A stretch of 63,941 bases of DNA, filler included, from Reclinomonas americana ATCC 50394 (lineage: Eukaryota): assembly GCA_048213135.1 (NCBI GenBank). It is 15 parts of 15 records of this genome, joined end to end, with 100 filler letters (N's around TTAATTAATTAA, not from the genome) between each part and the next. Parts side by side here need not be neighbours in the genome. Positions count along the whole stretch, not along the records: positions 22,186 to 29,335 come from AFZH01019003.1; 14 more parts are not named here. One strand, 5' to 3'. Position numbers and translations under genes: made by a program. Within the stretch, counting starts at the first letter, position 1; every line of letters begins with the position of its first letter. The notes under the pieces are model-generated. The model made no database searches. It saw nothing but the letters and a program-made list of their open reading frames with translations, and had not been told where the DNA came from. Positions 3,602-60,843 of the stretch are shown in pieces.

Positions 3602-4764
3602 TCAGCACCGGAAAAGGACGACCTCGGCATCCTCGGCGATGAAGCAGCGCAGAACCAGCTCGGGAAGGCATCGTGAATCTACTTCTTCCTCGACCACCTG
3701 CATCTCCAGCACAGCCGGCATGGCCGAGCGCGCAGCGTCGAGCTCGAGGCGAGCGAGGCCACGCGGCGCGGTCCACACTCTCACGGTCTTGTCGTAGCCA
3801 CCCGCACTCACAATGTGCTGACCATCGGGAGAGACAGCGACAGACGACGCCCATCCAGTGTGTCCCTCCAACCGTCGTACTTCCTCGCCACTTGCCAGAG
3901 ACCACATCCGAATTGTGCCGTCTCCGCTCCCACCAACGATGTGCTGGCCATCGGGAGTGACGGTGACAGACGACACCCATGCAGTGTGTCCGTCCAACCG
4001 TCGCACCTCCTCGCCACTAGCCAGAGACCAGACCCGCACAGTTTCGTCTCCACCACCACTCACAATATGCAGATTATCAGAGGTGGCGGAGACAGAACAC
4101 ACTCGATTTGTGTGCCCCGCCAGCCGTCGCACCTCCTCCCCACTCGCCAGAGACCACACCCGCACTGTGTTGTCGAAACTGCCACTCACGATGTGTTGAC
4201 AATCGGGAGTGACAGCGACTGACCACACCTTTTCGGTGTGGCCCGCCAACCGTCGCACCTCCTCCCCACTCGCCAGAGACCACACCCGTACAGTCTTGTC
4301 GAAGCCGCCGCTGACGATGCGCTGACCATCAGGAGTGACTGCGACAGACATCACCATGCCGGTGTGGCCCGCCAACCGTCGCAGCTCTTCCCCACTCGCC
4401 AGTGACCACATCCGCACTGTGTTGTCTCGACCCCCACTAACAATCTGCTGGCCATCAGGAGTGACGGCGACAGAAAACACCACATCAGCGTGTCCCCCCA
4501 GCCGTTGCACTTCTTCGCCACTCGCCAGAGACCACACTCGAACGGTGCCGTCCTCACACCCACCAACAATGTGCTTGCCATCGGGCGTGACGGCGACGGA
4601 TCGCACCACTGCGAGACTCTGAATGATCTGCGTCGATCACTCGCGGTGAGACGCACACACAAACATGAACACAAACAGCAACCACACACACGCACGAGCA
4701 CACGAATGCATGCACAGACACCAACCACGCAAAAGTGGGCACACATTCACACCTTTGTTTCCAT
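3602..4764 (-). CDS. WD40-repeat protein with 7 repeats and a SOCS-box-like C-terminus (copy 2)
   Basis: Exon 1 METK (4764-4753), intron 4752-4628, exon 2 in frame: IIQSLAVVRSVAVTPDGK... with seven 42-aa GH...TVRVWS repeats. Stop at 3602. Confidence 0.9.
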
Positions 4765-6910
4765 TCTCCGTGTGTGGTGAGTGTGTTTTGCTCGCTCTGG
4801 ATTGTCACCGTTTCCCGCCTTTCTTCTCCCGCCTTGCTCTGAGACCTCGCCAGGCTGCAACCAGTACGCCACACAACATACAGAAGTATGGCTTCTTTGA
4901 TGCGTGTGGGCTTTTGAAGACCACCAGGGGACTCGTCGATGAGAAATCGGCAGCATGGACATATGCATGCTGGCGACACAAGGTGGCGCTCCACTGCTCC
5001 GTGCATGCCCAGCGACACTTCATTTCGACTGTCCTGTATTCTCTCTCAACGAGGACTGGCATATCGGGCTGCTTGGGTACGCAGCTGTGGCCCTGGTGTG
5101 CAGGTGCCATAGCGCACCCGAGAATCCATGGAGCACCGAGTCTTCGAAACCTCAAGCCTCCTCGGATCGGCCCACAGCGAAGCTGACGAGGTGCACGTCA
5201 TGACTGCACGACGAAGAAGGAGAGTCACAGGGAACAGGAGAGGAGAGACCAGCACAGCAGCACAACGATGGACGAGGCAGCTGCGTCGTGAGGCTCGCCT
5301 CCTCTCACCCAACTCACAATCAATGCTTCATGCCTTCAATCACACTCACAGTCGGTCGGTGCATTGTCTCATGCATGTACTGTGTGGCACGGAACCAAGT
5401 GTCTTCGCATGCCAGTGACGAGTCACTTGCCAGCACGCTAATCACACAGAATTGAGTCAGTCAAATCTCCATGTCTCACCAACTTACTCCTCAACGCAGA
5501 TGCAGAACACGCACGCACCAGGCCACGCGCGCGTCTGCAGTCTCCCATGGCCACCAGTATCATTACTTGGCGGCGACAGCAGCAACCAAGAAGCGCACAT
5601 CATCGATCCGCTCTGACTTGCCAACCGGGATCGAGAACGATCCACCGACCAGGCCACCCATCGGGAACACGACACGCATGTGTCCACCCATGAGTAGATT
5701 GCCGAGCACGCGTCTGCAGTCTTCCATGGCCACCAGCATCATCACTCGAGAGACGGCGGCAGCCAAGGTGCGCACATCATCGATCTGCTCCGACTTGCCC
5801 AGCCGGGATTGAAAACGATCCACCAACCAGGCAATCGCATATCACGACACGCATGTGTACATCCCCCCACCACGCACTCCTTGACGAGCACGGCCTGCAC
5901 GAATGAGGTGAGTGGGAGGGAAGGAGGAAAAGAGAGATCACGAAGAACAGGGCCACACAACTGCTGGGATGCGAGTGGGGAGCCGAGTGAGTGAGGTGAC
6001 GGTCGACAACGGGCAATGCACATCACGCCTGTCATTACCACGACATGCTTTCCATGGTCTCTGCATGCCGGTGTTCTGTGAGCAAAGAATGGAGGACGGG
6101 GAGAGATATCTGCTCTGTCTAACTGACAAACACACCGATCAGCATCTGATACCAACGCGCGTTTGTCAAGAGGCAAGCCAAGGGACGTTCACACAACCAT
6201 CCTGCAAGGGAGAGAAGGAGCAGAGTCAGTATGCAGGTATGCCACCTCACACATTTCGGAATCGGGAAGCTCACCGTGATGGACTGGCAGGATGGCAATT
6301 GGAACACGGTGAGCGGACCAGAATGCTCGGCCTCGAGCGTGTGCGGCAAGGAGGGGCGGATTACTGGGGAATCAGATGAGCGCACAAAAGCAGGGAGATG
6401 GCGGAGAAAGAGATAGACTTTGCAGGAGGCAGGAAAAAAGAGAGCTGAAAGACAGGCATTCTTCGCAGTCGCACGTGCACAATGGGAAGCAGAGTATAGA
6501 GGTGCCAATGAGGTGTGCAAAACAAGACGCGAGGGAAACAGATAACGGTGACTCGCTCTCATGAGGCACGTATATCAGCGACGAAAGATGCACACACAAC
6601 AGACTTCACAACGAGGAGAAAAGAAATCACAGACTCCCAAGCGATTCATCGAGTTTGCACACACAAATGGAGGTGAGAAAGAGGCACGCATGCAGAGGGA
6701 GATGTGCTTCACTACCTCTCTCTCACTCACATGATAGGGCAACAAGCACAGAGAACAATTCTGCATCATCCACGTCGACTTCTCTCCTCTCGTCTGTCAT
6801 CCTCTCTTCCCCCACCCACACCCACATGATCACCCACTCTCCCTCGCAAGACACGAAAGCAACTCACGATCACCAGCAGCCACCGCTCTCCCATCCTTTG
6901 GCTCACCTTC

Positions 6911-8575
6911 TCAGCACCGAAAAAGGACGACCTCGGCATCCTCGACGATGAAACAGCGCAGAACCAGCTCGGGAAGACATCGTGAATCTACTTCCTCCTC
7001 CTGCATCTCCTGCACAGCCTGCATGGCCGAGCGCGCGGTGTCGAGTTCGAGACGGGCAAGGCCGCGCGGCGTGGACCACACTCGCACGGTCTCGTCGTAG
7101 CCACCCGCGCTCACAATGTGCTGACCATTGGGAGTGGCGGCAACAGACATCACCAGGTCCGAGTGTCCCTCTAACCGTCGTATTTCCTCGCCACTCGCCA
7201 GAGACCACACCCGCACGGTACAGTCCCCACCCCCGCTCACGATATGTTGGCCGTCGGGAGTGACGGCAACAGACCACCCAGGGCGAGTATGTCCCTCTAA
7301 CCGTCGCACTTGGTCTCCAGTCGCCAGTGACCATACTCGCACGGTGTTGTCCCCACCGCCACTCACAATGTACTGACCATCGGGAGTGACGGCGACAGAC
7401 CACACCATGCCAGTGTGTCCTTCCAATCGGCGCACTTCTTCGCCGCTCGCCAGAGACCAGACTCGACTGTGTTGTCGAAGCTGCTGCTGATGATGTGCCG
7501 ACCATCGGGAGTGACGACGACAGACAACACCCTAGTGTGCCCCTCCAACCGCCGCACCTCCTCCCCATGTACATGTGACCACACCCGCACTGTCTTGTCG
7601 AGGCTGCCACTCACGATATTCAGACCATCGGAGGTGACTGCGACGGACACCCGTATTGGAGTGTCCCTCCAACCGTCGCACCTCTTCTCCGCTCGCCAGA
7701 GACCATACCCGCACGGTGCTGTCCTCGCTCCCACTCACAATATGCTGACCGCTGGGAGTAACAGCGACGGCGCACACCCTTCCAGTGTGTCCCTCCAACT
7801 GTCGCACCTCCTCACCACTTGCCAGTGACCACACTCGTACTGTGCAGTCCCAGCTCCCACTGATTATGTGCTGACCATCGTAAGTGACGGCAACAGAGTA
7901 CACCAAGCCAGTGTGTCCTTCCAACCGTCGCACCTCCTCCCCACTCGCCAGTGACCACACCGCACTGTGTTGTCTTCACCGCCGCTCACAACGTGCTGAC
8001 CATCAGGGGTGACGGCGACACAATACACCCATCCAGTGTGTCCCACCAGCGGTCGCACCTCCATCCCACTCATCAAGGACCACACACGCACGGTAAAGTC
8101 TCCGCCCCCACCGACAAAAAGCTGACCATCAGGAGTGACGGCGACAGACGACACCCCGCCAGCGTTTCCCACCAGCCGTCGCACTTCTTCCCCACTCGCC
8201 AGAGACCACATTCGAACGGCGCTGTCCTCACATCCAGCAACAAAGTGCTTGCCATCAGGGGTGACGGTGACAGACCACACCGTTCTAGAGTGTCCACCCA
8301 GTCGTCGCTCTTCTTCCCCACTCGCCAGAGACCAAATTCGGATGGTGCCGTCGTCACACCCACCAACAATGTGCTTGCCATCGGGAGTGACGGCGACGGA
8401 CCACATCGCAGCGCGACTCTGAATGATCTGCAGCTGTGCCGATCACCCGCGGTGAGACGCACATGTACATGAACAAACACAAAGAACAACAACCGCACAC
8501 ATGCACAAGCACACGAATGCACGCACAGACACCAACCACGCAAAAGTGCGCACACATTCACACCTTTGTTGTCAT
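6911..8575 (-). pseudogene. WD40 gene copy 3 with 11 repeats and three frameshifts
   Basis: Exon 1 MTTK (8575-8564), exon 2 from 8427. The repeats are split over ORFs 7864-8406, 7532-7960, 7363-7734 and 6911-7435, with frame changes near 7960, 7650 and 7465. Same C-terminal tail as the other copies. Confidence 0.8.
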
Positions 8576-10748
8576 TCTCCGTGTGTGTAGTGTATGTGTG
8601 TGTGCGTTGCTCGCTCGGGATTGTCATCATTTCCCGCCTTTCTTCTCCCGCCTTGCTCCGAGACGCCGTCCATCCGTCGCCAGGCTGCAGCCAGTACCCC
8701 ACACAGCATGCAGTAGTGTGAGAGCAATGTGGCTTCTTTGATGCGTGTGGGATTTTGAAGACCGATATGAGCCTCGTCGATGCGAAATCGGCAAAATGGA
8801 CATGCTGGTGGTGACGACACAAGGTGGCACTCCACTGCACCGTGCTGCTGTCCAGCGACACTCTCTTTCAACTGATCTGCATTATCTCTCAACGAGGACT
8901 GGCATGTCGGTCTGCTTGGATACGCAGTTGTGGCCCTGGTGGGCAGATGCCATGGTACACCCGAATCCATGGAGCACCGAGTCATCGATACCTCAAGCCT
9001 CCTTGGATCGGCCCACAGCGAGGTTGATGATGGTACGATGAAGAAGGAGAGTCACAGGGAACAGGAGAGGAGAGACCAGCACAGTAGCACGTGCACATCG
9101 ATGGAACAGGCAGCTGCGTCGTGAGGCTCGCCTCTCACCCAAGTCACAATCAATGCCTCGTGCCTTCAATCACACTCACAGTCGGTCGGTGCATTGTCTC
9201 ATGCATGCACTGTGTGGCACGGAACCACGTGTCTTCGCATGCCAGTGACGAGTCACTTGCCAGCACGCCTATCACACAGAATTGAGTTAGTCAATCTCCA
9301 AGTCTCACCAACTTACTCCTCAACGCAGATGCAGAACACGTACGCACCAGGCCACGCGCGCATCTGCAGTCTCCCATGGCCATCATTATCATTACCTGGC
9401 GGCGACAGCAGCAACCAAGAAGCGCACATCATCGATCCGCTCTGACTTGCCAACCGGGATCGAGAACGATCCACCGACCAGGCCACCCATCGGGAAACAC
9501 GACACGCACGTGTCCACCCATGAATAGATTGCCGAGCACGCGTCTGCAGTCTTCCATGGCCACCAGCATCATCACTTGACATAGACGGCGGCAGCCAAGG
9601 CGCGCACATCATTGATCCGCTCCGACTCGCCAGCCGGGACTGAAAACGATCCACCGACCAGGCCATCCATCGCACATCACGACACACATGTGTACATCCA
9701 CCCAGCAACGAATTCCACGGCATGCACGACCTACACGACTGAGGTGAGTGGGAGGGAAGGAGGAGAGAGAGATCACGACGAACAAGGCCACACACCTGCA
9801 TCGTGCAATGGTGGGATGCGAGTGGGGAGCCGAGTGATTGAGGTGACAGCCGACAACGGGCGATGCACACCAAGTCTGTCATCGCCACGACATGCTCTCC
9901 ATGGTCTCTGCATGCCGGTGTACTGTGAGCAAAAGAATGGAGGACGGGGAGAGAAATCTGCTCTGTCTCAACGACGAACACACCGATCAGCACCTGATAC
10001 CAACGCGCGTTTGTCAAGAAGCAAGCCAAGGGACGCTCACACAACCGTCCTGCAAGGAGAGAGAAGGAGCAGAGTCAGTATGCAGGTATGCCACCTCACA
10101 CACCTCGGCATCGGGAAGCTCATGATCACCGTGATGGACTGGCAGGATGGCAATCGGAACACGGTGAGCGGACCAGCAGCTCGACCTCGAGCGTGTGCGG
10201 CAAGGAGGGGCGGATTTCTGGGGAATCAGATGAGCGCACAAAGGCAGGGAGATGGCGGAGAAAGAGATAGACTATGCAGGAGGCAGGAAAAAGAGAGCTG
10301 AAAGACATGCATTCTTCGCAGTCGCACGTGCACAATGGGAAGCAGAGTATAGCGGTGCCAAGGAAGTATGCAAAGCGAGACGCGAGGGAAACAATCATCG
10401 GTGACTGGCTCTCATGAGGCACATACACGCGCGATGAAAGATACGCACAACAGACATCACAACGAGACAAAAAGACACAACAGACTCCAAAGTGACCCGT
10501 CGCGCTTGCACACAAAATAGAGGTGAGAATGAGACACGCATCCAGAGAGAGATATCCTTCACGCCCACACTCACATTCACATGACAGGGCAACAAGCACG
10601 GTGAGCAATAACAACGATCTCTCTGCCTTTCCTCTGTCTTCTCTCTTCCGCCATCCAGCACTCGCATGATCACCCACTCTTCCTCGCAAGACACGAAAAA
10701 CAACTCACAGCACCAGCAGCCATCTCTCTCTCCCTCCGACTCACCAAC

Positions 10749-11934
10749 TCAGCACCGGAAAAGGACGACCTCGGTATCTTCGACGATGAAGCAGCGCAGA
10801 ACCATCTCGGGAAGGGATCGAGAATCTACTTCCTCCTCGTCCTCCTGCATCTCCTGCACAGCTTGCATGGCCGAGCGCGCGGCGTCGAGTTCGAGACGAG
10901 CGAGGCCACGCGGTGTGGACCACACTCTCACGGTCTTGTCGTAGCCACCCGCGCTCACAATGTGCTGACCATCGGGAGAGACGGCAACAGATATCACCAG
11001 GTGCGTGTGTCCCTCCAACCGTCGCACCTCCTCGCCATTCTCCAGAGACCATACCCGCACGGTGCTGTCCTCGCTCCCACTCACGACGTGCTGGCCATTG
11101 GAGGTGATGGTGACAGACGAGACCCATCCAGTGTGTCCTTCTAGTCGTCGCACTTCTTCTCCACTCCTCAGTGACCACACTCTCACCGTTTTGTCCCTAC
11201 TGCCACTCACGATGTGCTGACCGTCTGGAGTAACAGCGACAGAAATCACCCAGTCAGTGTGTCCCTCCAACCGCCGCACTTCTTCGCCGCTCGCCGGCAA
11301 CCATACCCGCACTGTCTTGTCTCCACCCCCACTCACAACGTGCTTGCCATCGGGGGTGACTGCCACAGACCACACCGAAATAGCGTGTCCCTCTAACCGT
11401 CGCACCTCCTCGCCACTCTCCAGCGACCACACTCGCACTGTCTTGTCGAAGCCGCCGCTGACGACGCGCTGACCATCAGGGGTGAAGGTGACAGACATCA
11501 CAGCATTGGTGTGGCCTTCCAGCCGCAGCACCTCTTCTCCACTCTCCAGCAACCACACACGCACGGTACGGTCTCCACACCCACTCACTAACTGCTGGCC
11601 ATTGGGGGTGACGGCGACAGACCACACCGAACCAGCGTGTCCATCCAGTCGTCGCACTTCTTCCCCACTCGCCAAAGACCACACACGAACGGAGCTGTCC
11701 ATGCACCCACCAACAATGTGCTTGCCATCGGGAGTGATGGTGACGGACCGCACCGAAGAAGCGAGACTCTGAATGATCTGTGACGATCACTTGCAGTGAG
11801 ACGCACGCAGTAGCAATCAAAGACAACATAACAACACAAAGAACAACAACCGCACACGAATGCACAAGCACACAAATGCACGCACAGACACCAACCACGC
11901 AAAAGTGCGCATACATTCACACCTTGGTTGTCAT
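10749..11934 (-). CDS. WD40-repeat protein with 7 repeats and a SOCS-box-like C-terminus (copy 4)
   Basis: Exon 1 MTTK (11934-11923), exon 2 from 11777 in frame with ORF 10749-11753. Confidence 0.9.
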
Positions 11935-12914
11935 TCTCCGTGCGTGCGTGTGTGTGAGTGAGTTGCTCGCTCGGGATTGTCACTGGTTCCCGCCTTTCTT
12001 CTCTCGCCTTGCTCTGAGGCGTCGTCCATCCGTCGTCAGGCTGCAGCCAGCACCCCACACAGCATGCGGTAGTGAGTGAACGATGTGGCTTCTTTGATGC
12101 GTGCGGGCTTTCGAAGACCGATACGGGACTCGTTGTTGCGAAATCGGCAAAATGGACATGCTGGCGACACAAAGTGGCGCTCCACTGCATCGCGCTGCTG
12201 TCCAGCGACATTTCATTGCGACTGGCCTGCATTATCTCTCAACGAGGACTGGCATGTCGTGATGTGCAGTTGCGGCCCTGTTGTGCTAATGCCATAGCAT
12301 TCCCGAGAATCCAATGAGCAGCGAGTCAGCGACACCTCACACATAGGATCGGCCCACAGCGATGCTGACGAGGGCACGATGATGGTACGACGAAGAAGGA
12401 GAGTCACAGGGAATAGGAGAGGAACGACCATAACAGCAGCACAGCAATGGAAGTGGCAGCTGTGTCGTGAGACTCGCCTCCTCCCACCCAAATCACAATC
12501 AATGCTTCGTCCTTCAATCACACTCACATTCGGTCGGTGCATTGTCTCATGCATGCACTGTGTGGCACGGAACCACGTGTCTTCGCATGCCAGTCACTTG
12601 CCAGCACGCCTGTCACACAAAACTGAGTTAGTCAATCTTCAAGTCCCGCCAACTTACTCCTCAACGCAGATGCAGAACACGTACGCACCAGGCCACGCGC
12701 GCGTCTGCAGTCTCCCATGGCCACCACCATCATTACTTGGCGGCGACAGCAGCAACCAAGAAGCGCACATCATCGATCCGCTCCGACTTGCCAGCCGGAT
12801 TGAAAACGATCTACCGACCAGGCCACCCATCGGGAAACACGACACGCATGTGTCCACCCATGAGTACATTGCCGAGCACGCGTCTGCAGTCTTCCATGGC
12901 CACCAGCATCATCA

Positions 12915-13014
12915 NNNNNNNNNNNNNNNNNNNNNNNNNNNNNNNNNNNNNNNNNNNNTTAATTAATTAANNNNNNNNNNNNNNNNNNNNNNNNNNNNNN
13001 NNNNNNNNNNNNNN
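12915..13014. other. Artificial gap linker, first of 14 (others start at 17008, 22086, 29336, 31628, 33133, 35489, 38071, 40296, 47567, 52895, 56683, 58420, 60844)
   Basis: 44 N + TTAATTAATTAA (stop codons in all six frames) + 44 N, identical each time. Confidence 0.98.
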
Positions 13015-17007: not shown

Positions 17008-17107
17008 NNNNNNNNNNNNNNNNNNNNNNNNNNNNNNNNNNNNNNNNNNNNTTAATTAATTAANNNNNNNNNNNNNNNNNNNNNNNNNNNNNNNNNNNNN
17101 NNNNNNN

Positions 17108-22085: not shown

Positions 22086-22185
22086 NNNNNNNNNNNNNNN
22101 NNNNNNNNNNNNNNNNNNNNNNNNNNNNNTTAATTAATTAANNNNNNNNNNNNNNNNNNNNNNNNNNNNNNNNNNNNNNNNNNNN

Positions 22186-22904
22186 ATCAGCATCGTCGTC
22201 GCCACCACCGCCCGCGGAGAAACGCAGTAAGCAGGCGACAGAAGAAGAGGAAATGCTGGAGGATGGAGTCGAGGAGGACATGTCACACCCTGTTGTCGAC
22301 GACGACGATGAGGAGGAGGATGATGACATGCTGGGGTTGCCGAAGCAGTGGGTGGACCCCACCCAGTGTTGCGTTCTGGGGCATGACCTTCTCTCTCTCT
22401 CTCTCTCTGTTGCTGACTGGAGTGTGCAACATTAGATCGACTGGTGAAGCGAGCTCCGTTGCGCGGGCCTGCGCGTCGCGGCACCATGTACATTCGCCAT
22501 CGCAGTAGCGTGCATGCGCTGTACAATCGAGTGTGTCGGCTGTTTGTGGACCACGGGTGTGTTTGTTTTGGTCGGAGAAACTTGTGTGTGTCGCTCATTG
22601 TGTGCTTGCCATAAGGCTCAAGTCGGTGCATGTGCACGCGCTGGGCGCGGCGGTGAACAAGGCTGTGGATGTGGCGTTGATGGTGCGCGATCGTGCGCAG
22701 GTGGGCAAGGTGGAGCTGCGGCCGCGCACCACGACCGAGGTGGTGATTGATGATTTCGAGCCACTTGTCGATGTTGCGTTTCTCCTCTCGTCTCCTCACC
22801 TCTTCTATTGTGCTGCTGACCCTCCGCTGCACGCACAGGGCTTGCCACCGCTGTCGCAGCGCCGATACACCACCGGCATGCACATTGAGATCGCGCGTGT
22901 GTGA
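22186..22904 (+). CDS. POP7: RNase P/MRP subunit POP7 (Rpp20), Alba fold
   Basis: RLVKRAPLR...MYIRHRS, VHVHALGAAVNKAVDVAL, TTTEVVIDDFEP and RYTTGMHIEI. Confidence 0.75.
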
Positions 22905-23294
22905 TCGGATAAGGAGAGAGACAACGGGCTGGCCGAGGTGACGACGACGACGAATCAGGTTCACTCGGTCGCGATTGAGACGACGAGCGCTCTCAACACC
23001 AACACACACACATATACGCACGTACGCACGCACGCGCAGCGTGTCGCACGCAGACGACACGCCCACCACAGAAAAAATACGAGTGTCGCGACAGCGGCCC
23101 GACGAGGCCGCAAGTAAAAAAAAGAAAAACACAAGAAGAAGAGCGAAAGAAATGCATATATTTGCCGAGAACGAGACGGTTTGTCGGGTCTCGAGCAACC
23201 GATATGTAGAGCGCGAGAGAAAGAGGGAGGAAGGGGAGAAGGGGACAGATACAGCACACACACACACACATACAAGGGGCAAGCGACATCTGAA

Positions 23295-24600
23295 TTACTC
23301 AGACGGTGCGGCGAACACGTAGGGAGCCGAGGCGGCGTACACGTCCCTCAGCGACTTGGGTGGGCGACCGAGAATGGTCTGCACGTCGTTGTTGGGGCGC
23401 GGGCCCTTGTTGTTCTTGAACAGGTCCAGCAGCTCCACCATGCCGCGTGCCTGCCACTCCGGCATGCCCATGCCCTTGAAGCTCTCCACCACGGCATTCG
23501 GGTCCTCCACCGACTCGTAGGTGATCTGCGAGTTGGCCAGCTCCGACAGCGTCGACGCAATCTCCGCGCCCGTCAGTGCATCACTCGACGTCAGCGTGTA
23601 CGTCTTGTTGGCAAACTTGCTGCGGTCGGCCTCGGTGGCCACCTTCCAGATGCACGCACCCACATCCTCCAGCGAGGTGCCGGTGATGGAGCCCTGGCCG
23701 AGGAACATGTACAGCTTCTTGGAGGCCTTGATTCCCTCCGCAAAGCCGTAGTAGTTCTCGAGGAAGAAGTCTGTGCACAGTGTGAGGAGCGGCGACACAT
23801 AATAGGAAAGTGAGAAGGGGAGGAAAAAGTTACCGAGACGGAAGATGCTGTAGGGCACATGGCAGGCCTTGACGGCATTCTCGGCCTTGGCGAACTGGCG
23901 CTGGAAGAGGATGCTGCCGTCCTCGAGAGCGCCGGGGACGGAGATGAGGATAATGTGCTTGCACGCCGACGAGCGACCCGCTGCCGCCGCAAAGCGCTCC
24001 GCAATGTCACCGCGGTCCTCGGCACCCTACATCGCGAGAGTACGAAGATGAGTATGTAATATATATGTGAAGAGAAGCAATTTCCTTGTTGCTCACTCAC
24101 CGGGGGGATAATGACCAAGACCTGCGCGCCCGCAATGGCGGCATCGATGGAGGCAGGGACGCGGTCGTCGACTTGCACGACATTGGCACGCGGAAGCGCG
24201 TCAGTGATCTTGTCGGCGCTCTTGCTCACATCACGAGTCGACACGGTCACGTCGACGCTGTAGTCCTCCGCAAAGGCCTGCAGTGCGGCCTTGCCGACGT
24301 AGCCACTGCCGGAGGTGATGAACACTGTTGACGGGGAGTGAGTGGGAGAGAGAGGGCCCGACGGAAAATGTCCATGTGCGCGGAGAAGACACAAACACAA
24401 ACAAACAAAGCAAGCTGCGTTGCACATTGCGCGGTTACCTTTGGTGGGGAGAGGAGCAGAGTTGTAGGCGCCTGCAGTGGTGACGAGCAGCGAGAACAAA
24501 AGGTAAGTAATGCATGACGGGGCGGAGTAGTTTTTTCAAGTGTTTGTTTGTTCTGCGTGCGTTTGTGTCAAGAGCAACTAACGCGTGCGTACTAACCCAT
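23295..24600 (-). CDS. NmrA-like NAD(P)-binding Rossmann-fold protein with a predicted myristoylation site
   Basis: A 4-nt first coding exon (ATGG, 24600-24597) splices to give MGAYNSAPLPTKVFITSGSGYVGK. Later motifs: FFLENY, DVG, YTLT...LTGAEIA, ILGRPP. Confidence 0.8.
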
Positions 24601-24720
24601 GGTGGTGGTGTGTGTGCGGAGTGGATACTCGAAGAAAAAATGATGAAGTGGGACGGGACGAGGGACATGTGTTTTCAATGCGCCGTTCGTCGTAATCGCT
24701 CACGCACGCTCCTGTGTCTC

Positions 24721-24957
24721 TCAGAACGAGATGACGGTGTCCGGCGGCTGAGTGGTCGTCGTGGTGGTCGACGTCGAAGTGGTGTGGGTGGTGGTGGTGG
24801 TCGGAACTGCAAGAAAGAGGAAACATCAGCATTGGGGCATTCCTCTTGCCTCATCGTTGGATGCTACGCAACTCTGCTCCCAGCTGGTGTAGGTGCCGGC
24901 AGTCGGCCAGGACTGAGTGCCCGTGGTGTCAAGGTGGAAGCCGCCGAGGTAGTTCAT
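24721..24957 (-). CDS. Microprotein B (56 aa), YxSWEQ family
   Basis: Exons 24957-24873 and 24806-24721: MNYLGGFHLDTTGTQSWPTAGTYTSWEQIPTTTTTHTTSTSTTTTTTQPPDTVISF. Confidence 0.75.
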
Positions 24958-25686
24958 GATCTACGAATGCCCAACGTCAGTCAATACAACCCGTGCGAAT
25001 CTGGACACACGTCGAGCCAGCGAAAAAGTACATCACGCCCTCTCTCTCTTACGAGTAACATAAAGAAGGAACAAGAGAACGAGGAGGAGAAGAGCGAGAG
25101 GGAGAGAAGAGAGCGAACGAACAGAGGGAATGGCGGGTGATGTCAACACACACACTTCCCTCTCCGATGCCACCCCGATGTCGCAACAAGAGCACGCAAG
25201 CACACACGTGACAGGTGCGCACATCAGCTCTCTGTCTCACACAGTCTCGTTTCGTTCTCTATCGACACGAGGGAGTGAAACTGGACATGATGACGAGAGG
25301 CAAGAAAGAGTGAGCGGCGCTATCCTTTGCACAAACACACACAGGGAGAGGGAGAGAGAGTGTGTGATCACCACAGGAGGTACACAGAGAGAGAGAGGAG
25401 TATGGGAGAAGGCGATCGTGATTGTTTCGGCTCGTTTCTCACGACAGACAGATGCGCGTCACTGCTCTCACTCTCTCACACACAGCGCACATAGGAGTGG
25501 AGTATCGTTGTGCCTCTATCCCTCCAAGCGACCCACGCTGCTCACCGGAAGCACAGGAAGAAACTCGTGATGATACGTCCTGCGACGTTAACGCGTTTGT
25601 GATCCTTGACCCTTCTCATTTCATTTCAAGTCGTTGCGCGCAGCGTTGGTTGTGATTGGATCCCCACTGGCGCGTTTTTTCCCTCT

Positions 25687-25894
25687 TTACCATGCCATTG
25701 GTGTGCCGGAGCTGCCGCTGTCGACTGCCGGTGCGGGTGACGCGGGGGCGGCGGTCGCAGGCTCGCCTGTCGGGACTGCAGGGAACAGGTGAGGACGAGA
25801 GAAGGGGAGTGAGGGGAATAGGCGACGGACCTTGCTCCCAGCTCGAGTAGATGTTCTCGTAGTAGCACGTCGTCTCAGTGTAGCCGCCAGACAT
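25687..25894 (-). CDS. Microprotein C (50 aa), YxSWEQ family
   Basis: Exons 25894-25831 and 25775-25687: MSGGYTETTCYYENIYSSWEQVPTGEPATAAPASPAPAVDSGSSGTPMAW. Confidence 0.7.
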
Positions 25895-25983
25895 GATGCG
25901 TGCGTTCCTGCAATGGCGAAGATGAGTGAGGACGGGGGAAGGGAAGGAGGGAGGGAGGGGGGGGAAGGGAAGGAGGGAGGAGG

Positions 25984-26052
25984 GGGGAAGGGGAAGGGGA
26001 AGGGGAAGGGGAAGGGGAAGGGGAAGGGGAAGGGGAAGGGGAAGGGGAAGGG
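25984..26052. repeat. (GGGGAA)n microsatellite within a roughly 800-nt purine-rich tract
   Basis: Directly visible hexamer run. Confidence 0.9.
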
Positions 26053-27152
26053 AGAGGCCAAGAAGAGGCAGCAGAGAGAAAAAAGAAAAAGTTGGCGTGT
26101 GGAACAGTGCAAAAGTCGGAGTGCACGAGAGGCAACAAGAATGAGAAGAGACAAGAGGGAAGAAGAAGGGGAAATGGAAAGACAGAGATAAAACACGAAA
26201 GAGGAGAGAGAGCGCCGCGATAGAGAACGAGGCAAGGGGAGCGGTAAATTGAACAGGTGCACGGAGAGGCAACAAGAAGGACAAGAAACAATAGGGGAGA
26301 AGAGAAAGAGAGAGAACTCAGCGAGAAGGGGAACATAAGAGAGAGAGAGAGAGGACATAAAAGACAAGGGGAAGAGGAGAGGAGGAGACAGAACGCAGAG
26401 AGACAGGAGGAGGCGAGGAGAACGGTGAAATAAAACGTGAGTGTGAGAGGAAAAGAGAAAAGACAGGGAACGAGAAGGGGATATGAAGCATGAGAGATAA
26501 CACACGAAAGATGAGAGGAGGAGAGAGAACGCAGAGAGACAGAAGGCGTGCATGAGAAGCAAAGAGAAAGACAAGACACAAGAAGGGGAACAGAAGAGAG
26601 AGAGAGAGAGAGAGAGAGAGGAAGAGAGAGAACGCAGCGAGAGAGAATGAGACAGAAGGAGACAAGGAGAACCTTGGAAGAGCAGGTGTGCAGAAGAGGC
26701 TGCAGAGAGAAGGAGAGCGGAGACTCGCGAGTATGGGGAGGGAGGCAGCAAACATCGCGTCTCGCTTCGTGTAACACAAGCCCACGACGACGAGCAACAA
26801 AGAGTGGATCCTCGAGCATCAGCAGGGGAGAAGTCTGTTGTGGATGACGAGGACCCAGAATGAAAAAAGTGACAGCGAAGGCGAGAAAGCAGTCGCTCTG
26901 ACGTTCGAATGAGGATGCCCACAAGATGGTTCATGACTCGAAGGGAAGGGGCCGCGAGGGAGCAAGATATGGCTCACGACGAATGCGCTTGGGGGAACAA
27001 GTCATCAGAGAGTGCGACTGAAGTGAGTGTTCCCTCGTCGTCGTCTGCTTTCTCTCTCTCTCTCTCTCTCGCAGAAAAGCACATGCAGTCTGTCACGAGT
27101 CATGACAGGTCACTCCACACAGCGCACACCATAGCTGCTGGCGAGTGCTCTT

Positions 27153-27195
<43 letters not shown>

Positions 27196-27679
27196 ACTCA
27201 ACGGAAGAGAACAAGCCGTCAGAACCAAGACAGACGCTTGATGTCCACTGCGAAACGACGACACATCGCACACACAACACAGAGAGGAATGCACTGCATA
27301 AGAAGTGCTCTCTCTCTTTCCTTCACACCGTCATCGTGTTCGGTGCGAGAACTATGTGTGAGCGAGTGAAAAGACAGCCATGGTCGCCTTCCCTCCCAAG
27401 AAAACACACACACACACACACTCTCTCTCTCACACACACAGCAGCATCGTGTGCGCGCGTAATCACACAGACAGAAAGGAGGCATCCTTTGCTCAACCAA
27501 CCTTACAAAAAAACAAATGAACGACGAGTGAAATTTTGCCGCGCCTGCTTGCAATTGCTGACGATGCATGCCCCTCTCATGCGTGTGCACCAAGAGACAT
27601 GCAGAGCAGTTGATCAACACACACGACTAGTTTTACAAAAAAAAAGAGCATTCCTTTTTTTTCTTTTCTTTTCTCTCTC

Positions 27680-27918
27680 TCAGAACGAGATCGTAGTCTC
27701 GCCTCCCGTCGTGGTCGTCGTTGTGGTCGTTGTAGTCGACGTTGTTGTGGTCGTCGTGCTGGTGGGGGCTGCACAAAGAAAGAAAACAGTAATCAATACC
27801 TCCGTTGCGCACACCAACTTTTTTTTTGACATGGAGAAGACGCACTCTGCTCCCAGCTCAGATATGAGCCCACCACCGAGGTGCTGCCGCCGTTGAGTGC
27901 GTTTGAGATGATCTCCAT
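27680..27918 (-). CDS. Microprotein A (53 aa), YxSWEQ family
   Basis: Exons 27918-27846 and 27768-27680: MEIISNALNGGSTSVVGSYLSWEQTPTSTTTTTTSTTTTTTTTTTGGETTISF. Confidence 0.75.
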
Positions 27919-28575
27919 GATGATGCTGCACACAGACACACAAAACCCCCAGTCAAAAAAGTTGGACAGGCGCTGTGATTGACTGCGTGGTGACCGGCAC
28001 ACAGACAGAGGGAGGGAGAAAGAGTGTGTGTATGCGCGCGCGTGCGTGAGAGAGGAACAGGAGCGCGCGCGATGGAGATGTGCGTGACATGACACAAAAG
28101 AAGACACCCTCGCGCTCTCTGTTCTCTCTTGCTGATGTCTTGCGCCTCTCCTTGCCGCCCAACAACACGCCGAGCGCACGCACAGAAACGACAGCAAACA
28201 ACAACAATCACACACAATTGGCGCGAGACCGAATCTCTGCACCAATAAACACCCCAACTCTGCGTCGCCTTAACACGCACACAAGAGGCACACAGAGAGA
28301 CAGAGAGCAGAGAGGGGGGCCGCAGATGGCGCACAAACCTTGCGTGAAAATTGTGTGAGTGAGCGAAATTTCACGCTCAACGTTCATCCTTTGTCCCAAC
28401 ACGAGGAGCGCGCGCGCGTGTCCCTGGCTCACGCACACAGACACACGCAGACACACACACGTACACTCTCCCTCACGCACAACGACCAAGGTGAGCGGGC
28501 GCGCAGAGAGAGCGAGGACGTTGACATGTCCGTAGTTAACGCTCACTTGTCGTCGCCTGCCCATCAAAGAGAGAG

Positions 28576-29288
28576 ATGAGCGACGAGGACGACTTCTGGG
28601 ACCGCGTCGAAAGCAACGGCCTCGCTGGTGATGACGTGGAAGCGCGAGCAGCAAACGGCAGCCTGCGACTATCGCGACCGAGCTCGGCTTCCACGACAAT
28701 GTCAACGCGTGTGCGCACTCCGCGTCTCGATCTCAACATGCGTGCGCTGCGTGCGATTGAGGGCGTGGAGGGCAGCCTCGAGGGAGTCGCCATTGAGGAG
28801 TACTTGAGTGAGGAGACTCTGGTCTGTACACACGCACGCAAAAGTCAGTTTCCTTGTTGCGCACGTTCGCGTTGTTGATGTTTGTGTTGCTTGCTGGGTA
28901 GCGTGAGGTGACGGGTCAGATGGATTTGTCGTGTGTGCGCAAGCTGGAGCTGGTGATTGATATCACGGAGAACTCGATTGGGAATCTGGGAGTCAAGCTG
29001 CCGAACTTGAGGGAACTCAAACTCAGCAATAGTGTTGTGCATTCGTTGAGGTGGGTTGCGGGCAAGGGTACTACGGAAACGATGTTGTCGTGATGGTGTG
29101 GGGAACAGGGCTTCTGCTTGTACTGCTTGGGTTTTCTGGCTTGTCCTCATTCTCGCTTGTCGACTCTCTCTTCCTCTCCCTCTGCGCGCGCCGTTGGTCA
29201 CAAAGCTCTCTGCATCTGCTTTTGTCGGCAACACCTGTATACTCGGTTGTCGCCGCTCACAGTGCGCTTCACGCATCGTCTTTCCCTT

Positions 29289-29329
<41 letters not shown>

Positions 29330-32300
29330 ATCTAGNNNNNNNNNNNNNNNNNNNNNNNNNNNNNNNNNNNNNNNNNNNNTTAATTAATTAANNNNNNNNN
29401 NNNNNNNNNNNNNNNNNNNNNNNNNNNNNNNNNNNCGTCTCCTACGCTTTTCCGTTCCCTACCTCTCCCCTTTCCCTTCCTCCTTACTTCACCCTTCCTA
29501 CTCTCTCCTTCTTTTCCCTTCCTCTCTCTCTCTCTCTCCTCTCCTCTCCTTCTCTCTCTCTCCTTCTCTCACTCTTCCCCCTCTCTCCCTCTTCCCCTTC
29601 TTTCCCTTCACAGAGACCTCGGCACCTCCCTACCACACGTGGAAATCCTCTGGCTCTCTCGCTGCAACATGCAGGAGTTGGACGGCATCTCGGGATTCGC
29701 CGATCTGCGCGAGTTGTACGCCAGCTTCAACGACATTACCGATCTCAGTCCATTGGCGCTGGCGGAGCACATTGAGACGATTGATTTGGAGGGGTGAGAG
29801 ACTGCCATGGTTTTTTTCTCTGCCACTGTCTTTCTCTCTCTGCCCCTCATGCCTATCTTTGCGAAAACAGCAATCGCATCGACGACATTCACCAAGTACA
29901 ATTCCTGTCGAGCTGTCCGCGCCTCACCTCCTTGTCGCTGGACAGCAACCCGATGGCCTCACACCCGCAGTACCGTGCGGTGGTGGTGCATGCACTGGCG
30001 TCGCTGGACTTCCTCGACGATGTGCCAGTGACGAGAGCGGAACGCGAGCGAGCCGCCAGTGTGGTACCCGCGCTGCTGAGTGACACGAGATGGGCGGGTG
30101 TGTCGACGGCGGGCGCCGACGAGGAGATGGAGTTGGTGAAGGATGGTATCAAGTACGCGCGTGTTGGACTCGATGCCGTGGCAGTGGGGTGCGTTCACCT
30201 GTGGAGCATGGTGGAGGTTCAGGAGAAACTGACGGTCTCTTATCGCAGCGCCACGGTGCTCGTGTCGACACCGGGTGGCGGGTCAAGACCCATGACCGCC
30301 ATTAGTGCTGAGGATGCTGCATCGATTCACCGACCACTCACTGCGCGGCATGTGAAGAGGTGCGGCGAAGAGAGAGAAAGGGAGGGAGAGCGGGAGGAGA
30401 GAGAGAGAGAGATGCGCTCTTGTATTAACCGCAGCTGTTTCTTTTCTTCCCAACTTTCTCACCTGTTGTTACTTGCAACCGTTCATTCTATACTATAGCG
30501 CTCCACAAGATTTATCGTCTCTTATACGTGCAAACACTCCGTATCTTGTTACCAGTGTCTTCTCTTCGACGCATCTCATCTTTGCTGTCTTTTCATATCT
30601 CTTCTCATCTGTTCAACTGTGTGTCCTACTTGCCTGGCATTTCAAATCAGCTCATATGTTCTTGCACTCTTCCTTGTCGTCACTTCCTTCATTCTGCGCA
30701 GCAATCTTGCTGCATTCCTTCTTATCTCTTGCGCCGTTTTCTTCTTCGCCCCCCTTCCGTTCAGTTGTTTTCTCTTCATCGCGCGCAACAAATATTGTTG
30801 CCTGCTGCATTGGGGAGTTGTTCTTATATTCTTTGTTCCCCTATATGCAGCAGTCCTGCAGCGTTCGCTCTCTTGCCCATTCCCCTTGCTTTCCGCTTCC
30901 TACTCTTCTTACCACTCCCTTCGCTGCATTCTCACTTTGTCGATCGTTTCTCTGTATGCTCCTCTTGTCACCCTCTTCTTTCCCCTTGCCCCCGTCCCCT
31001 TCCCCCCTGCCCCCTTCCCGCCCTCATCACTCTTCCCACACGCAGCCGCGGCACGGCAAGACCAGGCTCAGCCTCCGGTCGACCTGGCTCCGCCTCCATG
31101 TCGCGCGTGGCTTCGGCGGGCGCACGACCGGGGTCGGTGTCCGGGGCCGGTCGACCCGGTTCAGCAGCCGGTCGACCTGGCTCCTCTGGTGGTGGCGGTA
31201 GTGGTAGTGGTGGTGGGGCACGGCCTGGCAGTGCGCGCATGATTGCGGCGGCCACTGGTGCCGCCACTGCCAGATCCAACATCACACAGCCGTCGGGGAG
31301 CTTTGGCAGCGAAGAGGACGATGGTGCAAGTGATTTGACATATGGTGAGTTTGTTGGGAGTGTGGGGATAGAGAAAGAGAGGGAGTGCAGCGAGTGAGTG
31401 ACTGGCGAGTGATAGCACTGTGGATATTGGGGAGGCGTGCTGATTCTTGCTCTTCTCTGTCGCAGGCTCTAGTCGTGTAATATGTGGCAATCCGGTCAAG
31501 TCGTTGCGCTCGAGGAAAATCGAGGCCCCTCTACCATCGGAGATGCCAGCACCCGAAGTTCCGCCGTCGCCCACACTGCTAAGGTCAGTGAGCGCCAGCA
31601 GTACCATTTCTTCTTCTCGTCGTCGTCNNNNNNNNNNNNNNNNNNNNNNNNNNNNNNNNNNNNNNNNNNNNTTAATTAATTAANNNNNNNNNNNNNNNNN
31701 NNNNNNNNNNNNNNNNNNNNNNNNNNNGTTTGATGCCTGAATTGTGATCCCCGCAGACTGGAGACAAGAGAAGACATTCTGGAGGAGCTGCGTTTGTACA
31801 AGCTGCAGACGGCCGACATGGTGATGCTTCCCGACGACACGGATCTGGTGTTGGGCGACATTGGCGAGTTCAGTGACGCCTTCACACTCGATACGTTGCC
31901 GCCGGAGGTGGCCGACGACGGCTTGTTTGATGCGGCTGATGGCGGCGATGCGCGAAAGGTGTGGACGTGCGCTACCCTCCGCGATGCAACTCCCCACTCG
32001 CTGACTTCTTCTCCTTTTCCTCGCAGTCTGCACAACGGGCACTCAATCAGGCGTTTGTCAGCTCCGATTCGGATTCCGATGGAGTCGATATTCCCGTGGA
32101 CGACGCCTACCTGGACGAGAAGTTGGGCGAGATCGAGAACCAGCCGCCCAATCGCAGCTCGCTGCCGTCGTCACAGACGCAGCTGCCGACGCGCAAGCCA
32201 CCACGGCCGACGACACAGTCGGGCCAGTCCTCATCCTCCTCCGTCTACTCCTCTTCCTCTTCCTCGTCGTCGTCGTCTTCCTCATCGTCGTCCGCCATCT

Positions 32301-40587: not shown

Positions 40588-40669
40588 GCGTCGGTGGCCG
40601 AGTGGTCTAAGGCGTCCGACTCAAGTTCGGATCTAGCGATAGGCATGGGTTCGAATCCCATCCGACGCA
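40588..40669 (+). tRNA. tRNA-Leu(CAA), intronless, long variable arm
   Basis: Acceptor stem GCGTCGG/CCGACGC, D arm TGGCCGAGTGGTCTAAGGC, anticodon arm TCCGA-CTCAAGT-TCGGA, T arm ATGGG-TTCGAAT-CCCAT. A T6 run follows at 40674 (Pol III terminator). Confidence 0.95.
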
Positions 40670-59404: not shown

Positions 59405-60843
59405 ATGAGCAAGCTGAAGGGTGAGTGAGGTGCACAGGTAGACAAGCGTGCCTCGCAGTGCATTCTTGCGTTGTGTGTTCTTCCGCGGCGGGACATCACG
59501 CGCAAAACACGTGGGCGCAACATGACGCACGCACGCACTCTCTCTCCCTCTCTCACACACATGCATGCACACAAGACAGCCATTGACTAGCTGCACTGTG
59601 CATTTATGTGTGCGCGCGCGCATGAGATTCACACTCCTGTCTACATTTCTCTCTCACACAAAAATGTTCTCACTCACTCGCACGCAGGATTGCTTGGCCT
59701 CGGGCCCTCATGCGCGGTGGAGATCTTCTTTGACAACTGTGAGAAGCGACGCACAGTGGATGTGCAAATGGAGGAGCGCGTGGACACGCAGTATGTGTTT
59801 CAGGGACACGAGCCGATCTCGGGGCGCGTGGTCATTCGCCCGAACCCCGGCAAGAAGATTGAGCACACAGGTGGGCGAGAGAGAGGGAGGGAGAGATGTG
59901 AGGGGAAGAGGAGAACAGAGCTAATAATGCAATCATTAGTGAGAGGCTGCAGATTTGAGACGAGTCAGAAAAGGATGCAAGGCGTCAAGGGAGCGAGCGA
60001 GACGAGTCGATGACGCACTCTTGACACGAGACGAGAGAGATAAGAATGCAGGATCAGTGACCTAGAGGATCAAGGTGTCGATGCAGTAGAGACACATGAG
60101 AATGCAAGGTGTTCAGAAAGCGAGAATGACGAGTGAGGAGAGTCAAGGGTGCAGGGCAGTGCATTCAAGGGAGCGAGAGGATCAAGTTGCAGATGCAGTC
60201 GAGACACATGAGAATGCAAGGTGTTCAGAGTGCGTGAAAGAAGAGTCCTAGACGCACTCTAGACGCGAGACGAGAGAGATAAGAATGCAGGCGTACATAG
60301 AGTGCGAGAGAGACGAGTTGCATTCGTAGTGTGTACGGAATGTTTCATGTTTCATCACTCCTGATTGTCGACTGGGCAGGCCTGCGCGTGGAGCTCATTG
60401 GCCAGATTGTGTTGACGTACGAGCGCGTGGAGCGACAAGACTTCACGTCGGTGGTGCGTGCACTGGAGGCGTCGGGCGAGATCTCTAGCGAGTCGGCGTA
60501 CGCGTTCGAGTTCCCCACGGTCGACAAGCAGTTCGACTCGTACAACGGCATCAACGCGCAGCTGCGCTACTTTTTGCGCGTGACGATTGTGCGTCCGTAC
60601 TCGACGAATGTGGTGCAGGAGCAGGAGTTCTGGGTGGAGAACTTCTCGAGGGAGCCGCCAGCGCTGCAGTCGGGCCCCATTGCGGCCACGCCGGCGGAGA
60701 CTGGCGTCGCGGCCCTTGCCGGTATCAAGATGGAGGTCGGCATTGAGGATTATTTGCACATTGAGTTCGAGTACGACAAGTCACAGTTGCGTCGTCCACG
60801 TGTGCGGCGACGGCGGTGGGATGCTGACATCGCCACTCCTCCA
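59405..60843 (+). CDS. VPS26: Retromer subunit VPS26; 3' end at gap
   Basis: PGKKIEH.GLRVELIGQI, SYNGINAQLRYFLRVTI and IKMEVGIEDYLHIEFEYDKS. Confidence 0.95.

Follow-up and report, generated by a model that had tools for sequence, protein, structure and literature searches.

Three candidate two-exon microprotein genes in tandem in Reclinomonas americana: gene structure, coding signature and possible function

Do three short, neighbouring reading frames in the DNA of the eukaryote Reclinomonas americana ATCC 50394 form a family of spliced genes for proteins of only 50–56 residues, and what could such proteins do? The question is raised by positions 24721–27918 of the window, the 63,941-nucleotide (nt) stretch of assembly GCA_048213135.1 that was analysed here, where three co-oriented open reading frames (ORFs) of 56, 50 and 53 amino acids (aa), genes A, B and C, are all found on the minus strand, in the place given by an earlier note made from the sequence (the original prediction). 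As that note had claimed, the three spliced products have in common the motif Y-x-S-W-E-Q-[I/V/T]-P-T, which spans the splice junction. It is likely that A, B and C are real, translated genes. An even chance is given to the more specific reading that they constitute a tandem family of old origin, made up of acidic, disordered microproteins restricted to one lineage, which would act via two short aromatic motifs placed on a flexible spacer of fixed length.

The window consists of small contigs of ~1.4–7 kb, which are chained by 14 identical linkers, N44-TTAATTAATTAA-N44, the core of the linker containing a stop in all six frames (sites 12915–13014, 17008–17107, 22086–22185, 29336–29435 and 10 more). 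The three-gene locus is placed entirely inside one 7.15-kb contig (AFZH01019003.1, window positions 22186–29335). The DNA of the window is eukaryotic, with a GC content of ~0.51–0.60.

Gene models and splice signals

In all three genes the ATG (24957 in A, 25894 in B and 27918 in C) is immediately preceded by ATC, and an A is present at position −3 of each start context. Exon 1 comprises 21–28 codons through S-W-E-Q and one further base. A phase-1 GT..AG intron follows right after S-W-E-Q in each gene, and the junctions proposed earlier, 24872/24807, 25830/25776 and 27845/27769, are exact in the gene models. The last exon, after the intron, extends for 83–86 nt up to the stop. The models, which are probably right, contain the following features:

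24873..24957, minus strand: gene A exon 1, from the ATG at 24957 to S-W-E-Q plus 1 nt; an in-frame TAG is located directly upstream
24807..24872, minus strand: gene A intron, 66 nt, phase 1, GTTGCG...CTGAT...TTGCAG, with 16/20 pyrimidines before the acceptor
24721..24806, minus strand: gene A exon 2, encoding I-P-T, a Thr-rich spacer and the end ...ISF; TGA at 24723–24721
25831..25894, minus strand: gene B exon 1, with the ATG at 25894 being the first in-frame ATG; the frame is open from 26317
25776..25830, minus strand: gene B intron, 55 nt, phase 1, GTCCGT...CTCAC...CTGCAG
25687..25775, minus strand: gene B exon 2, encoding V-P-T, an Ala/Pro/Ser-rich spacer and the end ...MAW; TAA at 25689–25687
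27846..27918, minus strand: gene C exon 1, with the ATG at 27918 being the first in-frame ATG; the frame is open from 28269
27769..27845, minus strand: gene C intron, 77 nt, phase 1, GTGCGT...TGTGCAG
27680..27768, minus strand: gene C exon 2, encoding T-P-T, a Thr-rich spacer and the end ...ISF; TGA at 27682–27680

The 15-nt pattern AGCTGGGAGCARRGT has three exact matches in the window, all of them at the three gene sites, where ~5e-4 exact matches would be expected by chance (an arithmetic estimate rather than a tool output). When up to two mismatches were allowed, the mean was 0.58 matches per shuffle (n=100 shuffles), and only one shuffle of the 100 reached three. Neither a scan at peptide level nor nhmmer searches with profiles of the two exons found a fourth copy in the window, the next-best E-values being 1.1 and 0.055.

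The introns of 55–77 nt begin with the donors GTTGCG (A), GTCCGT (B) and GTGCGT (C) and end with acceptors summarized as YYGCAG. At each internal acceptor, 16 of the 20 nt that precede the last 3 nt of the intron are pyrimidines, and branch-like elements, CTGAT, CTCAC and ATTAC, are present in A, B and C, respectively. As a benchmark serve the introns of the same window that are anchored by homology. The PP4R3 intron (64 nt, GTGCGC...CTGAC...CACAG, phase 1) joins Pfam profile positions 58 and 59, and splicing of the aspartic protease intron (67 nt, GTTGCG...ACACAG) restores ...DSGSTFLWVP..., the donor hexamer GTTGCG being common to this intron and that of gene A. The Vps26 intron (509 nt, GTGGGC...GGGCAG, phase 1) restores ...EHTGLRVELIGQ..., which aligns with solved Vps26 structures, and the intron of an NmrA-like gene (74 nt, GTGAGT...ATGTAG) is positioned between two Pfam-matched pieces. 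The microprotein introns fall within the range of these homology-anchored introns, so that the splice signals favour real genes. A shared coding frame on the opposite strand is excluded, since with introns of 55, 66 and 77 nt the frame of exon 1 relative to that of exon 2 is not the same in any two copies, and GT..AG signals are missing from the plus strand at these places.

The lengths of the three homologous introns, 66, 55 and 77 nt, step by exactly 11 nt.

The 5′ ends of the genes require separate consideration, as the original prediction had placed the acceptor of a probable intron of the 5′ untranslated region (UTR) upstream of each start codon. Acceptor-like AGs are indeed present in all three genes:

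24961..24962, minus strand: putative acceptor AG of gene A, 3 nt before the ATG, with a CTGAC branch-like element 17 nt upstream
25908..25909, minus strand: putative acceptor AG of gene B, 13 nt before the ATG, following a CT-rich tract of ~700 nt
27926..27927, minus strand: putative acceptor AG of gene C, 7 nt before the ATG

These sites are, however, weaker than the internal acceptors, having 10–15 as opposed to 16 pyrimidines of 20. It is plausible that they are acceptors of 5′-UTR introns or spliced-leader (trans-splice) sites.

The same AGs could indicate that the genes are mis-modelled. The ATGs would then be internal and upstream coding exons, for example for a signal peptide, would join the AGs, to yield secreted mini-mucin or arabinogalactan-like peptides or the tails of a larger protein. 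The acceptor-like AGs and branch-like elements 3–13 nt before each ATG are in line with such a model, as are the frames of B and C, which are open far upstream, and the hydrophobic, phase-compatible upstream ORF pieces with GT donors, of which there are 6 candidates for A, 13 for B and 7 for C. However, these candidates stem from CT-rich tracts, which give Leu, Phe and Ser by composition, and they are dissimilar to each other. The phase needed from an upstream exon also differs, being 0 for A and 2 for B and C, which makes it less likely that the copies share a homologous coding exon or a donor. Moreover, an in-frame TAG overlaps the upstream acceptor of gene A, each unit stops at the same aligned place, and no Pfam-recognizable minus-strand gene is found upstream within the contig. 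Such mis-modelling is considered improbable, and it is unlikely that the three units are alternative 3′ ends of one larger protein.

The products do share with Thr/Ser/Pro/Ala-rich linkers and with mucin- or arabinogalactan-like peptides the Thr runs of A and C and the Ala-Pro and Ser-Pro sequences of B. Mucin-like and arabinogalactan-like peptides are secreted and are glycosylated in the secretory pathway, whereas the ORFs of A, B and C contain no signal peptide or anchor signal. The earlier observation that a signal peptide is missing is borne out and extends to membrane segments, as the highest 9-residue Kyte-Doolittle mean in the predicted ORFs is at most 0.82, and the highest value in the first 20 residues is 0.39 for A, −0.59 for B and 0.82 for C.

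The CT-rich tract of ~700 nt on the coding strand upstream of gene B (window 25935–26700, minus strand) generates long open frames, of up to 428 aa, that are spurious. Within the tract are a (GGGGAA)n array at 25935–26052 (plus-strand reading) and two copies of a 103-nt unit (26444–26647).

Conservation and coding signature

Exon 2 is 0.56–0.73 identical between copies in global alignments. The introns and the 100-nt flanks align globally at an identity of 0.43–0.61, which was taken, without a control alignment, as approximately the level of unrelated DNA. No shared 11-mer (one mismatch allowed) was found outside CT-rich low complexity in the 730–800 nt upstream or the 420–590 nt downstream of the three genes. 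The similarity among the copies appears to be confined to the exons.

In the DNA alignment of exon 2, an invariant C recurs at each third base, which corresponds to the middle base of the codons for Thr, Ala, Pro and Ser. Codon position 2 is the most identical in all three pairs (0.65, 0.71 and 0.67) and position 3 is the least identical in two of the three, position 1 being the lowest in A–B. The ratio of nonsynonymous to synonymous divergence (dN/dS, Nei-Gojobori) is 0.71 for A–B, 0.39 for A–C and 0.28 for B–C, at a dS of 1.0–2.7, which is saturated. The GC content of third codon positions is 0.89 in A, 0.78 in B and 0.79 in C, compared with 0.69 in the 1665 homology-supported codons of the window. 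The proposed frame has the best synonymous-codon score in each gene, although with small margins, that for B being only 0.06 bit per codon. The Thr codons are mixed in both Thr-rich genes: the 21 in gene A are divided into 13 ACC, 4 ACG and 4 ACT, and those of gene C into 6 ACC, 9 ACG, 4 ACA and 2 ACT. Lys and Arg are altogether missing from the 159 residues of the three products, as opposed to 9.7% in the supported exons of the window (naive probability 8.5e-8).

These features bear on the possibility that the locus is not translated at all, being duplicated non-coding or decaying sequence, or an RNA-level element in which the 11-mer conserved at the end of the exon has a role in splicing or in RNA structure. 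The strongest conservation is indeed seen at the nucleotide level, where AGCTGGGAGCA is identical in all three copies, including its Ser and Glu codons, right at the splice donor, and half of each ORF is of low complexity. In addition, RNAalifold pairs the purine-rich conserved exon end with the pyrimidine tract at the 3′ end of the intron at all three loci. The consensus fold is nevertheless weak (−10.8 kcal/mol over 270 columns, with a covariation term of −1.3), and no Rfam family is found at the three-gene locus. An untranslated sequence would not be expected to show period-3 conservation, to retain start, stop, phase and exon 2 length while dS is saturated, or to be wholly devoid of Lys and Arg codons, and a non-translated locus is rather unlikely.

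Taken at the level of sequence, paralogy, intact gene structure and a coding-type constraint can be regarded as established. The claim of selection made in the original prediction stands in so far as it is backed by the splice signals, the conservation by codon position, the exon-limited similarity and the frames kept intact at saturated dS; this support is internal to the sequences themselves. Beyond that, we infer translation, disorder, binding and any partner.

Predicted products and their possible function

In addition to the Y-x-S-W-E-Q-[I/V/T]-P-T motif, the three products have T-x-[I/M]-[S/A]-[F/W] at the extreme C-terminus, with the ends ISF (A), MAW (B) and ISF (C) as first described, and a Gly-Gly near the N-terminus is kept among the copies. 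The linker had been given as 27–28 aa, which needs correction: the part after the Gln contains 28, 29 and 29 residues, including [I/V/T]-P-T and the C-terminal motif, and the spacer proper comprises ~22–23. The type and length of this spacer are kept but not its sequence, which is Thr-rich in A and C and Ala/Pro/Ser-rich in B. The predicted proteins are acidic, with an isoelectric point of 4.5 for A and 4.05 for both B and C, and each contains 13–29 Ser and Thr and 3–6 aromatic residues. Judged by composition, we infer them to be intrinsically disordered.

Tests for known short motifs in the three products gave no CaaX box, no dibasic KR or RR site of the Kex2 type, no type 1 peroxisomal targeting signal and no W-x-x-x-[F/Y] in any of them. 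The pattern [L/M]-x-W-[D/E], that of the W-acidic motif bound by kinesin light chain, occurs in one of the three (gene C), and Y-x-x-hydrophobic occurs in all three only if Trp is counted as a hydrophobic residue.

Of the functional ideas considered, a two-ended linear-motif tether appears to fit this anatomy best. According to the favoured reading, one lineage-restricted gene would have been triplicated in tandem long ago, and each copy would be spliced once within its coding region, where the phase-1 intron splits the codon that follows S-W-E-Q. Translation would yield an acidic protein of 50–56 residues without Lys, Arg, a hydrophobic core or a signal peptide, and for lack of these the product is expected to be disordered and cytosolic or nuclear. 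The parts under selection would be the Y-x-S-W-E-Q-[I/V/T]-P-T motif, the C-terminal T-x-[I/M]-[S/A]-[F/W] motif and the length and composition of the spacer, which would be built of Thr, Ser, Ala and Pro, residues encoded with C as the second base. The protein would thus be a two-ended ligand, whose aromatic motifs, ~22–23 flexible residues apart, may dock on one partner or bridge two. The missing Lys may spare a bound protein from ubiquitylation, and the variable N-terminus may give each paralogue a specificity of its own.

With respect to the missing Lys, lysine-free stretches are described as common in disordered proteins of the ubiquitin-proteasome system, and protection against ubiquitylation has been proposed for lysine deserts of disordered proteins (PMC10169902, in the part used here). 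The resemblance to such lysine deserts (PMC10169902 and PMC10665810, both used in part) lies in the complete absence of Lys from a disordered protein. The deserts described there are long stretches in large proteins of known function, whereas in the present case an entire protein of 50–56 aa is concerned, Arg is absent as well, and a link to ubiquitin is not implied.

The original prediction had put forward the products as Atg8-interacting adaptors. As such, they would insert the W-E-Q-[I/V] core into the two hydrophobic pockets of Atg8 and so link something else to autophagic membranes. The comparison is with proteins that carry an LC3-interacting region (LIR) or Atg8-interacting motif (AIM), with which the products share a disordered acidic context, an aromatic residue and, in two of the three, Ile or Val three residues later (PMC5119064, used here in part). 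A and B contain the core W-x-x-[I/V], in which the Trp is followed by an acidic residue, and this fits the minimal LIR definition of the same source, [WFY]xx[LIV], and the predicted disorder of the motif region is the usual setting of functional LIRs. However, gene C has a Thr at the last core position and so lacks the hydrophobic anchor; the supposed key residue is thus not conserved, while the flanking Tyr, Ser, Gln, Pro and Thr, which belong to no LIR definition in the part of PMC5119064 used here, are kept. None of the three products matches the xLIR or the cLIR expression taken from that source. The minimal core is very frequent by chance, and the same source cautions that false positives are many. 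The hypothesis did not withstand these tests, and a role as an Atg8 adaptor is very unlikely.

A further alternative is that the genes encode precursors from which modified peptides are made. The conserved motif would then serve for recognition or cleavage, and either the Thr/Ser/Pro part would carry glycans or the core peptide would be the variable N-terminus, released from the rest. A precursor-like layout is apparent in the conserved short motif, the hypervariable segment and the multi-copy tandem arrangement of very small ORFs, and both the complete absence of Lys and Arg and the 13–29 Ser and Thr per protein are in line with it. The three genes appear to resemble small precursor-peptide families of eukaryotes. 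Precursors of Amanita MSDIN-type cyclic peptides and of lipopeptide pheromones are encoded by very small ORFs in several paralogues, with a conserved beside a variable block and no signal peptide, and all of this is also found in A, B and C. The conserved block of A, B and C is nevertheless central and not an N-terminal leader, and CaaX is missing from all three. Kex2-processed precursors of fungal repeat peptides possess a signal peptide and dibasic sites, unlike the three products, which contain neither. Furthermore, no gene for a prolyl oligopeptidase or another tailoring enzyme is present among the Pfam matches of the contig (ORFs of at least 130 aa), which are limited to a weak NmrA-like, an Alba/Rpp20 and a weak leucine-rich repeat (LRR) match; as the contig covers only 7.15 kb, this is weak evidence. 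Overall, a precursor function has a low probability.

A variant of this idea, which is quite improbable, is that the genes are the first members of an undescribed class of eukaryotic ribosomal peptides without a signal peptide, Lys or Arg. A modifying enzyme of the cytosol would dock on Y-x-S-W-E-Q-x-P-T; it could be, for instance, an O-glycosyltransferase with the Thr/Ser/Pro spacer as its substrate or a protease that frees the variable N-terminal part. If true, the genes would specify cytosolic 'mini-mucins' or signalling peptides of a poorly sampled protist lineage.

Relatives of the genes were sought with exon-level queries, that is, with exon translations and the unspliced ORFs from each ATG (41–45 aa). 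Among proteins of 22–79 aa, no candidate sharing three 5-residue words was found for the unspliced ORFs of A, B and C. Pfam returned no family for the six exon translations at E-values up to 1 (pieces of 21–28 aa), and the best score of exon 1 of gene A in the protein atlas, 0.82, is at noise level. In metagenomes, a peptide-pattern scan gave 20 stretches, none of them confirmed, and the DNA pattern TAYNNNAGCTGGGAGCARRGT gave 83 loci, none of them with the architecture of the family. The motif strings do not occur in the literature searched. The protein, Pfam, metagenome and literature searches, at exon level and without a relative, agree with the earlier statement that no known family is recognized. 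Proteins of this genome appear to be absent from the protein collection searched, so that the negative searches are of limited meaning; they were shallow, and the restriction of the family to one organism is not demonstrated by them.

Two candidates that arose in these searches were rejected. When the unspliced 43-aa ORF of gene A was compared with 1.84 billion representatives, two matches were obtained, to internally repetitive proteins of 475 and 587 aa; these showed many weak stretches and were judged spurious. A weak metagenome candidate (locus L009) was likewise discarded.

Returning to the favoured reading of a two-motif tether family, several points weigh against it. Low complexity occupies about half of each product, which inflates the identity at codon position 2, makes the alignment arbitrary there and leaves frames open by composition. 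Tandem Repeats Finder detects imperfect arrays of period 3/9/12 in the second exons of A and C (65–90% matches, scores 32–60), exon 2 of B being unflagged. The A–B dN/dS of 0.71 would point to only weak constraint, and the margins in codon usage are small, above all for B. With no relative found in the exon-level searches, there is no conservation between species to support selection. Finally, none of the published patterns that were tested fits the two motifs in every copy, and both the mechanism of binding and the role of the missing Lys are argued purely by analogy.

Neighbouring genes and wider meaning

The following features were found outside the family:

23295..24600, minus strand: NmrA-like NAD(P)-binding gene downstream of gene A, with a five-exon model of 309 aa, no internal stop and weak Pfam matches to NmrA/NAD_binding_10
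40588–40669, plus strand: tRNA-Leu (CAA), the sole Rfam or ARAGORN match in the window

The ATG of the NmrA-like gene is located 120 nt past the stop of gene A, and this spacing hints at very tight packing, co-transcription or spliced-leader processing. In its model, three further introns of 125, 114 and 63 nt follow from signals only, and the gene probably starts with a 4-nt first coding exon (ATG and G) followed by an exon of 33 nt. The predicted N-terminus, M-G-A-Y-N-S, resembles the consensus signal for N-myristoylation. The NmrA-like ORF gave no protein match at E-values of 0.001 or below.

The Alba/Rpp20-like fragment recognized by Pfam is placed on the opposite strand of the same contig. 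An LRR-like ORF is found at the end of this contig (28920–29093, plus strand) and an LRR_9 match early in the next (29785–30495, plus strand), which suggests that the contigs may stand in true order.

Across the window, Pfam matches of ORF fragments reveal split genes for Vps26, PP4R3, an aspartic protease, WD40 proteins, a PQ-loop protein and others. The WD40 cluster (3605–12238, minus strand) consists of ORF pieces with very high-scoring, regular repeats, for example 10752–11786 and 3605–4636 with seven each, and may represent one or more large WD40-repeat genes. The 509-nt intron of Vps26 (59871–60379, plus strand) is GA-rich and, by eye, contains two copies of a unit ~240 nt apart. The Vps26 protein has a 15-residue insertion (query residues 126–140) compared with solved Vps26 structures. 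The best match of the Vps26 exon is 50% identical, among proteins of at least 318 aa, and matches from Balamuthia and Toxoplasma are 44% identical.

Among eukaryotes that are poorly sampled, small disordered proteins often form orphan families. Like tandem families of orphan small ORFs in general, A, B and C have no detectable relatives, are duplicated in tandem, have diverged fast and are of low complexity. Unlike them, they have kept a motif that an intron splits in an unchanging phase, and a spacer of constant length, at a synonymous divergence that is saturated. This points to a function that is old and has been maintained, and not to an ORF that arose de novo in recent times. What would make A, B and C distinctive among orphan families is only the total lack of Lys and Arg and the interruption of the motif by a phase-1 intron that is conserved.

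Provided that they are both transcribed and translated, the genes would show how proteins that are otherwise free to evolve can retain over long periods a linear motif of 9 residues and a spacer whose length is fixed. If they are real, the motif would offer a ready peptide bait for finding a binding partner in a poorly known eukaryote. Proteins without Lys and Arg are invisible to standard tryptic proteomics, and genes that are both short and spliced are missed by ORF-based annotation. The three genes of R. americana, if real, would exemplify a class that is overlooked by routine pipelines.

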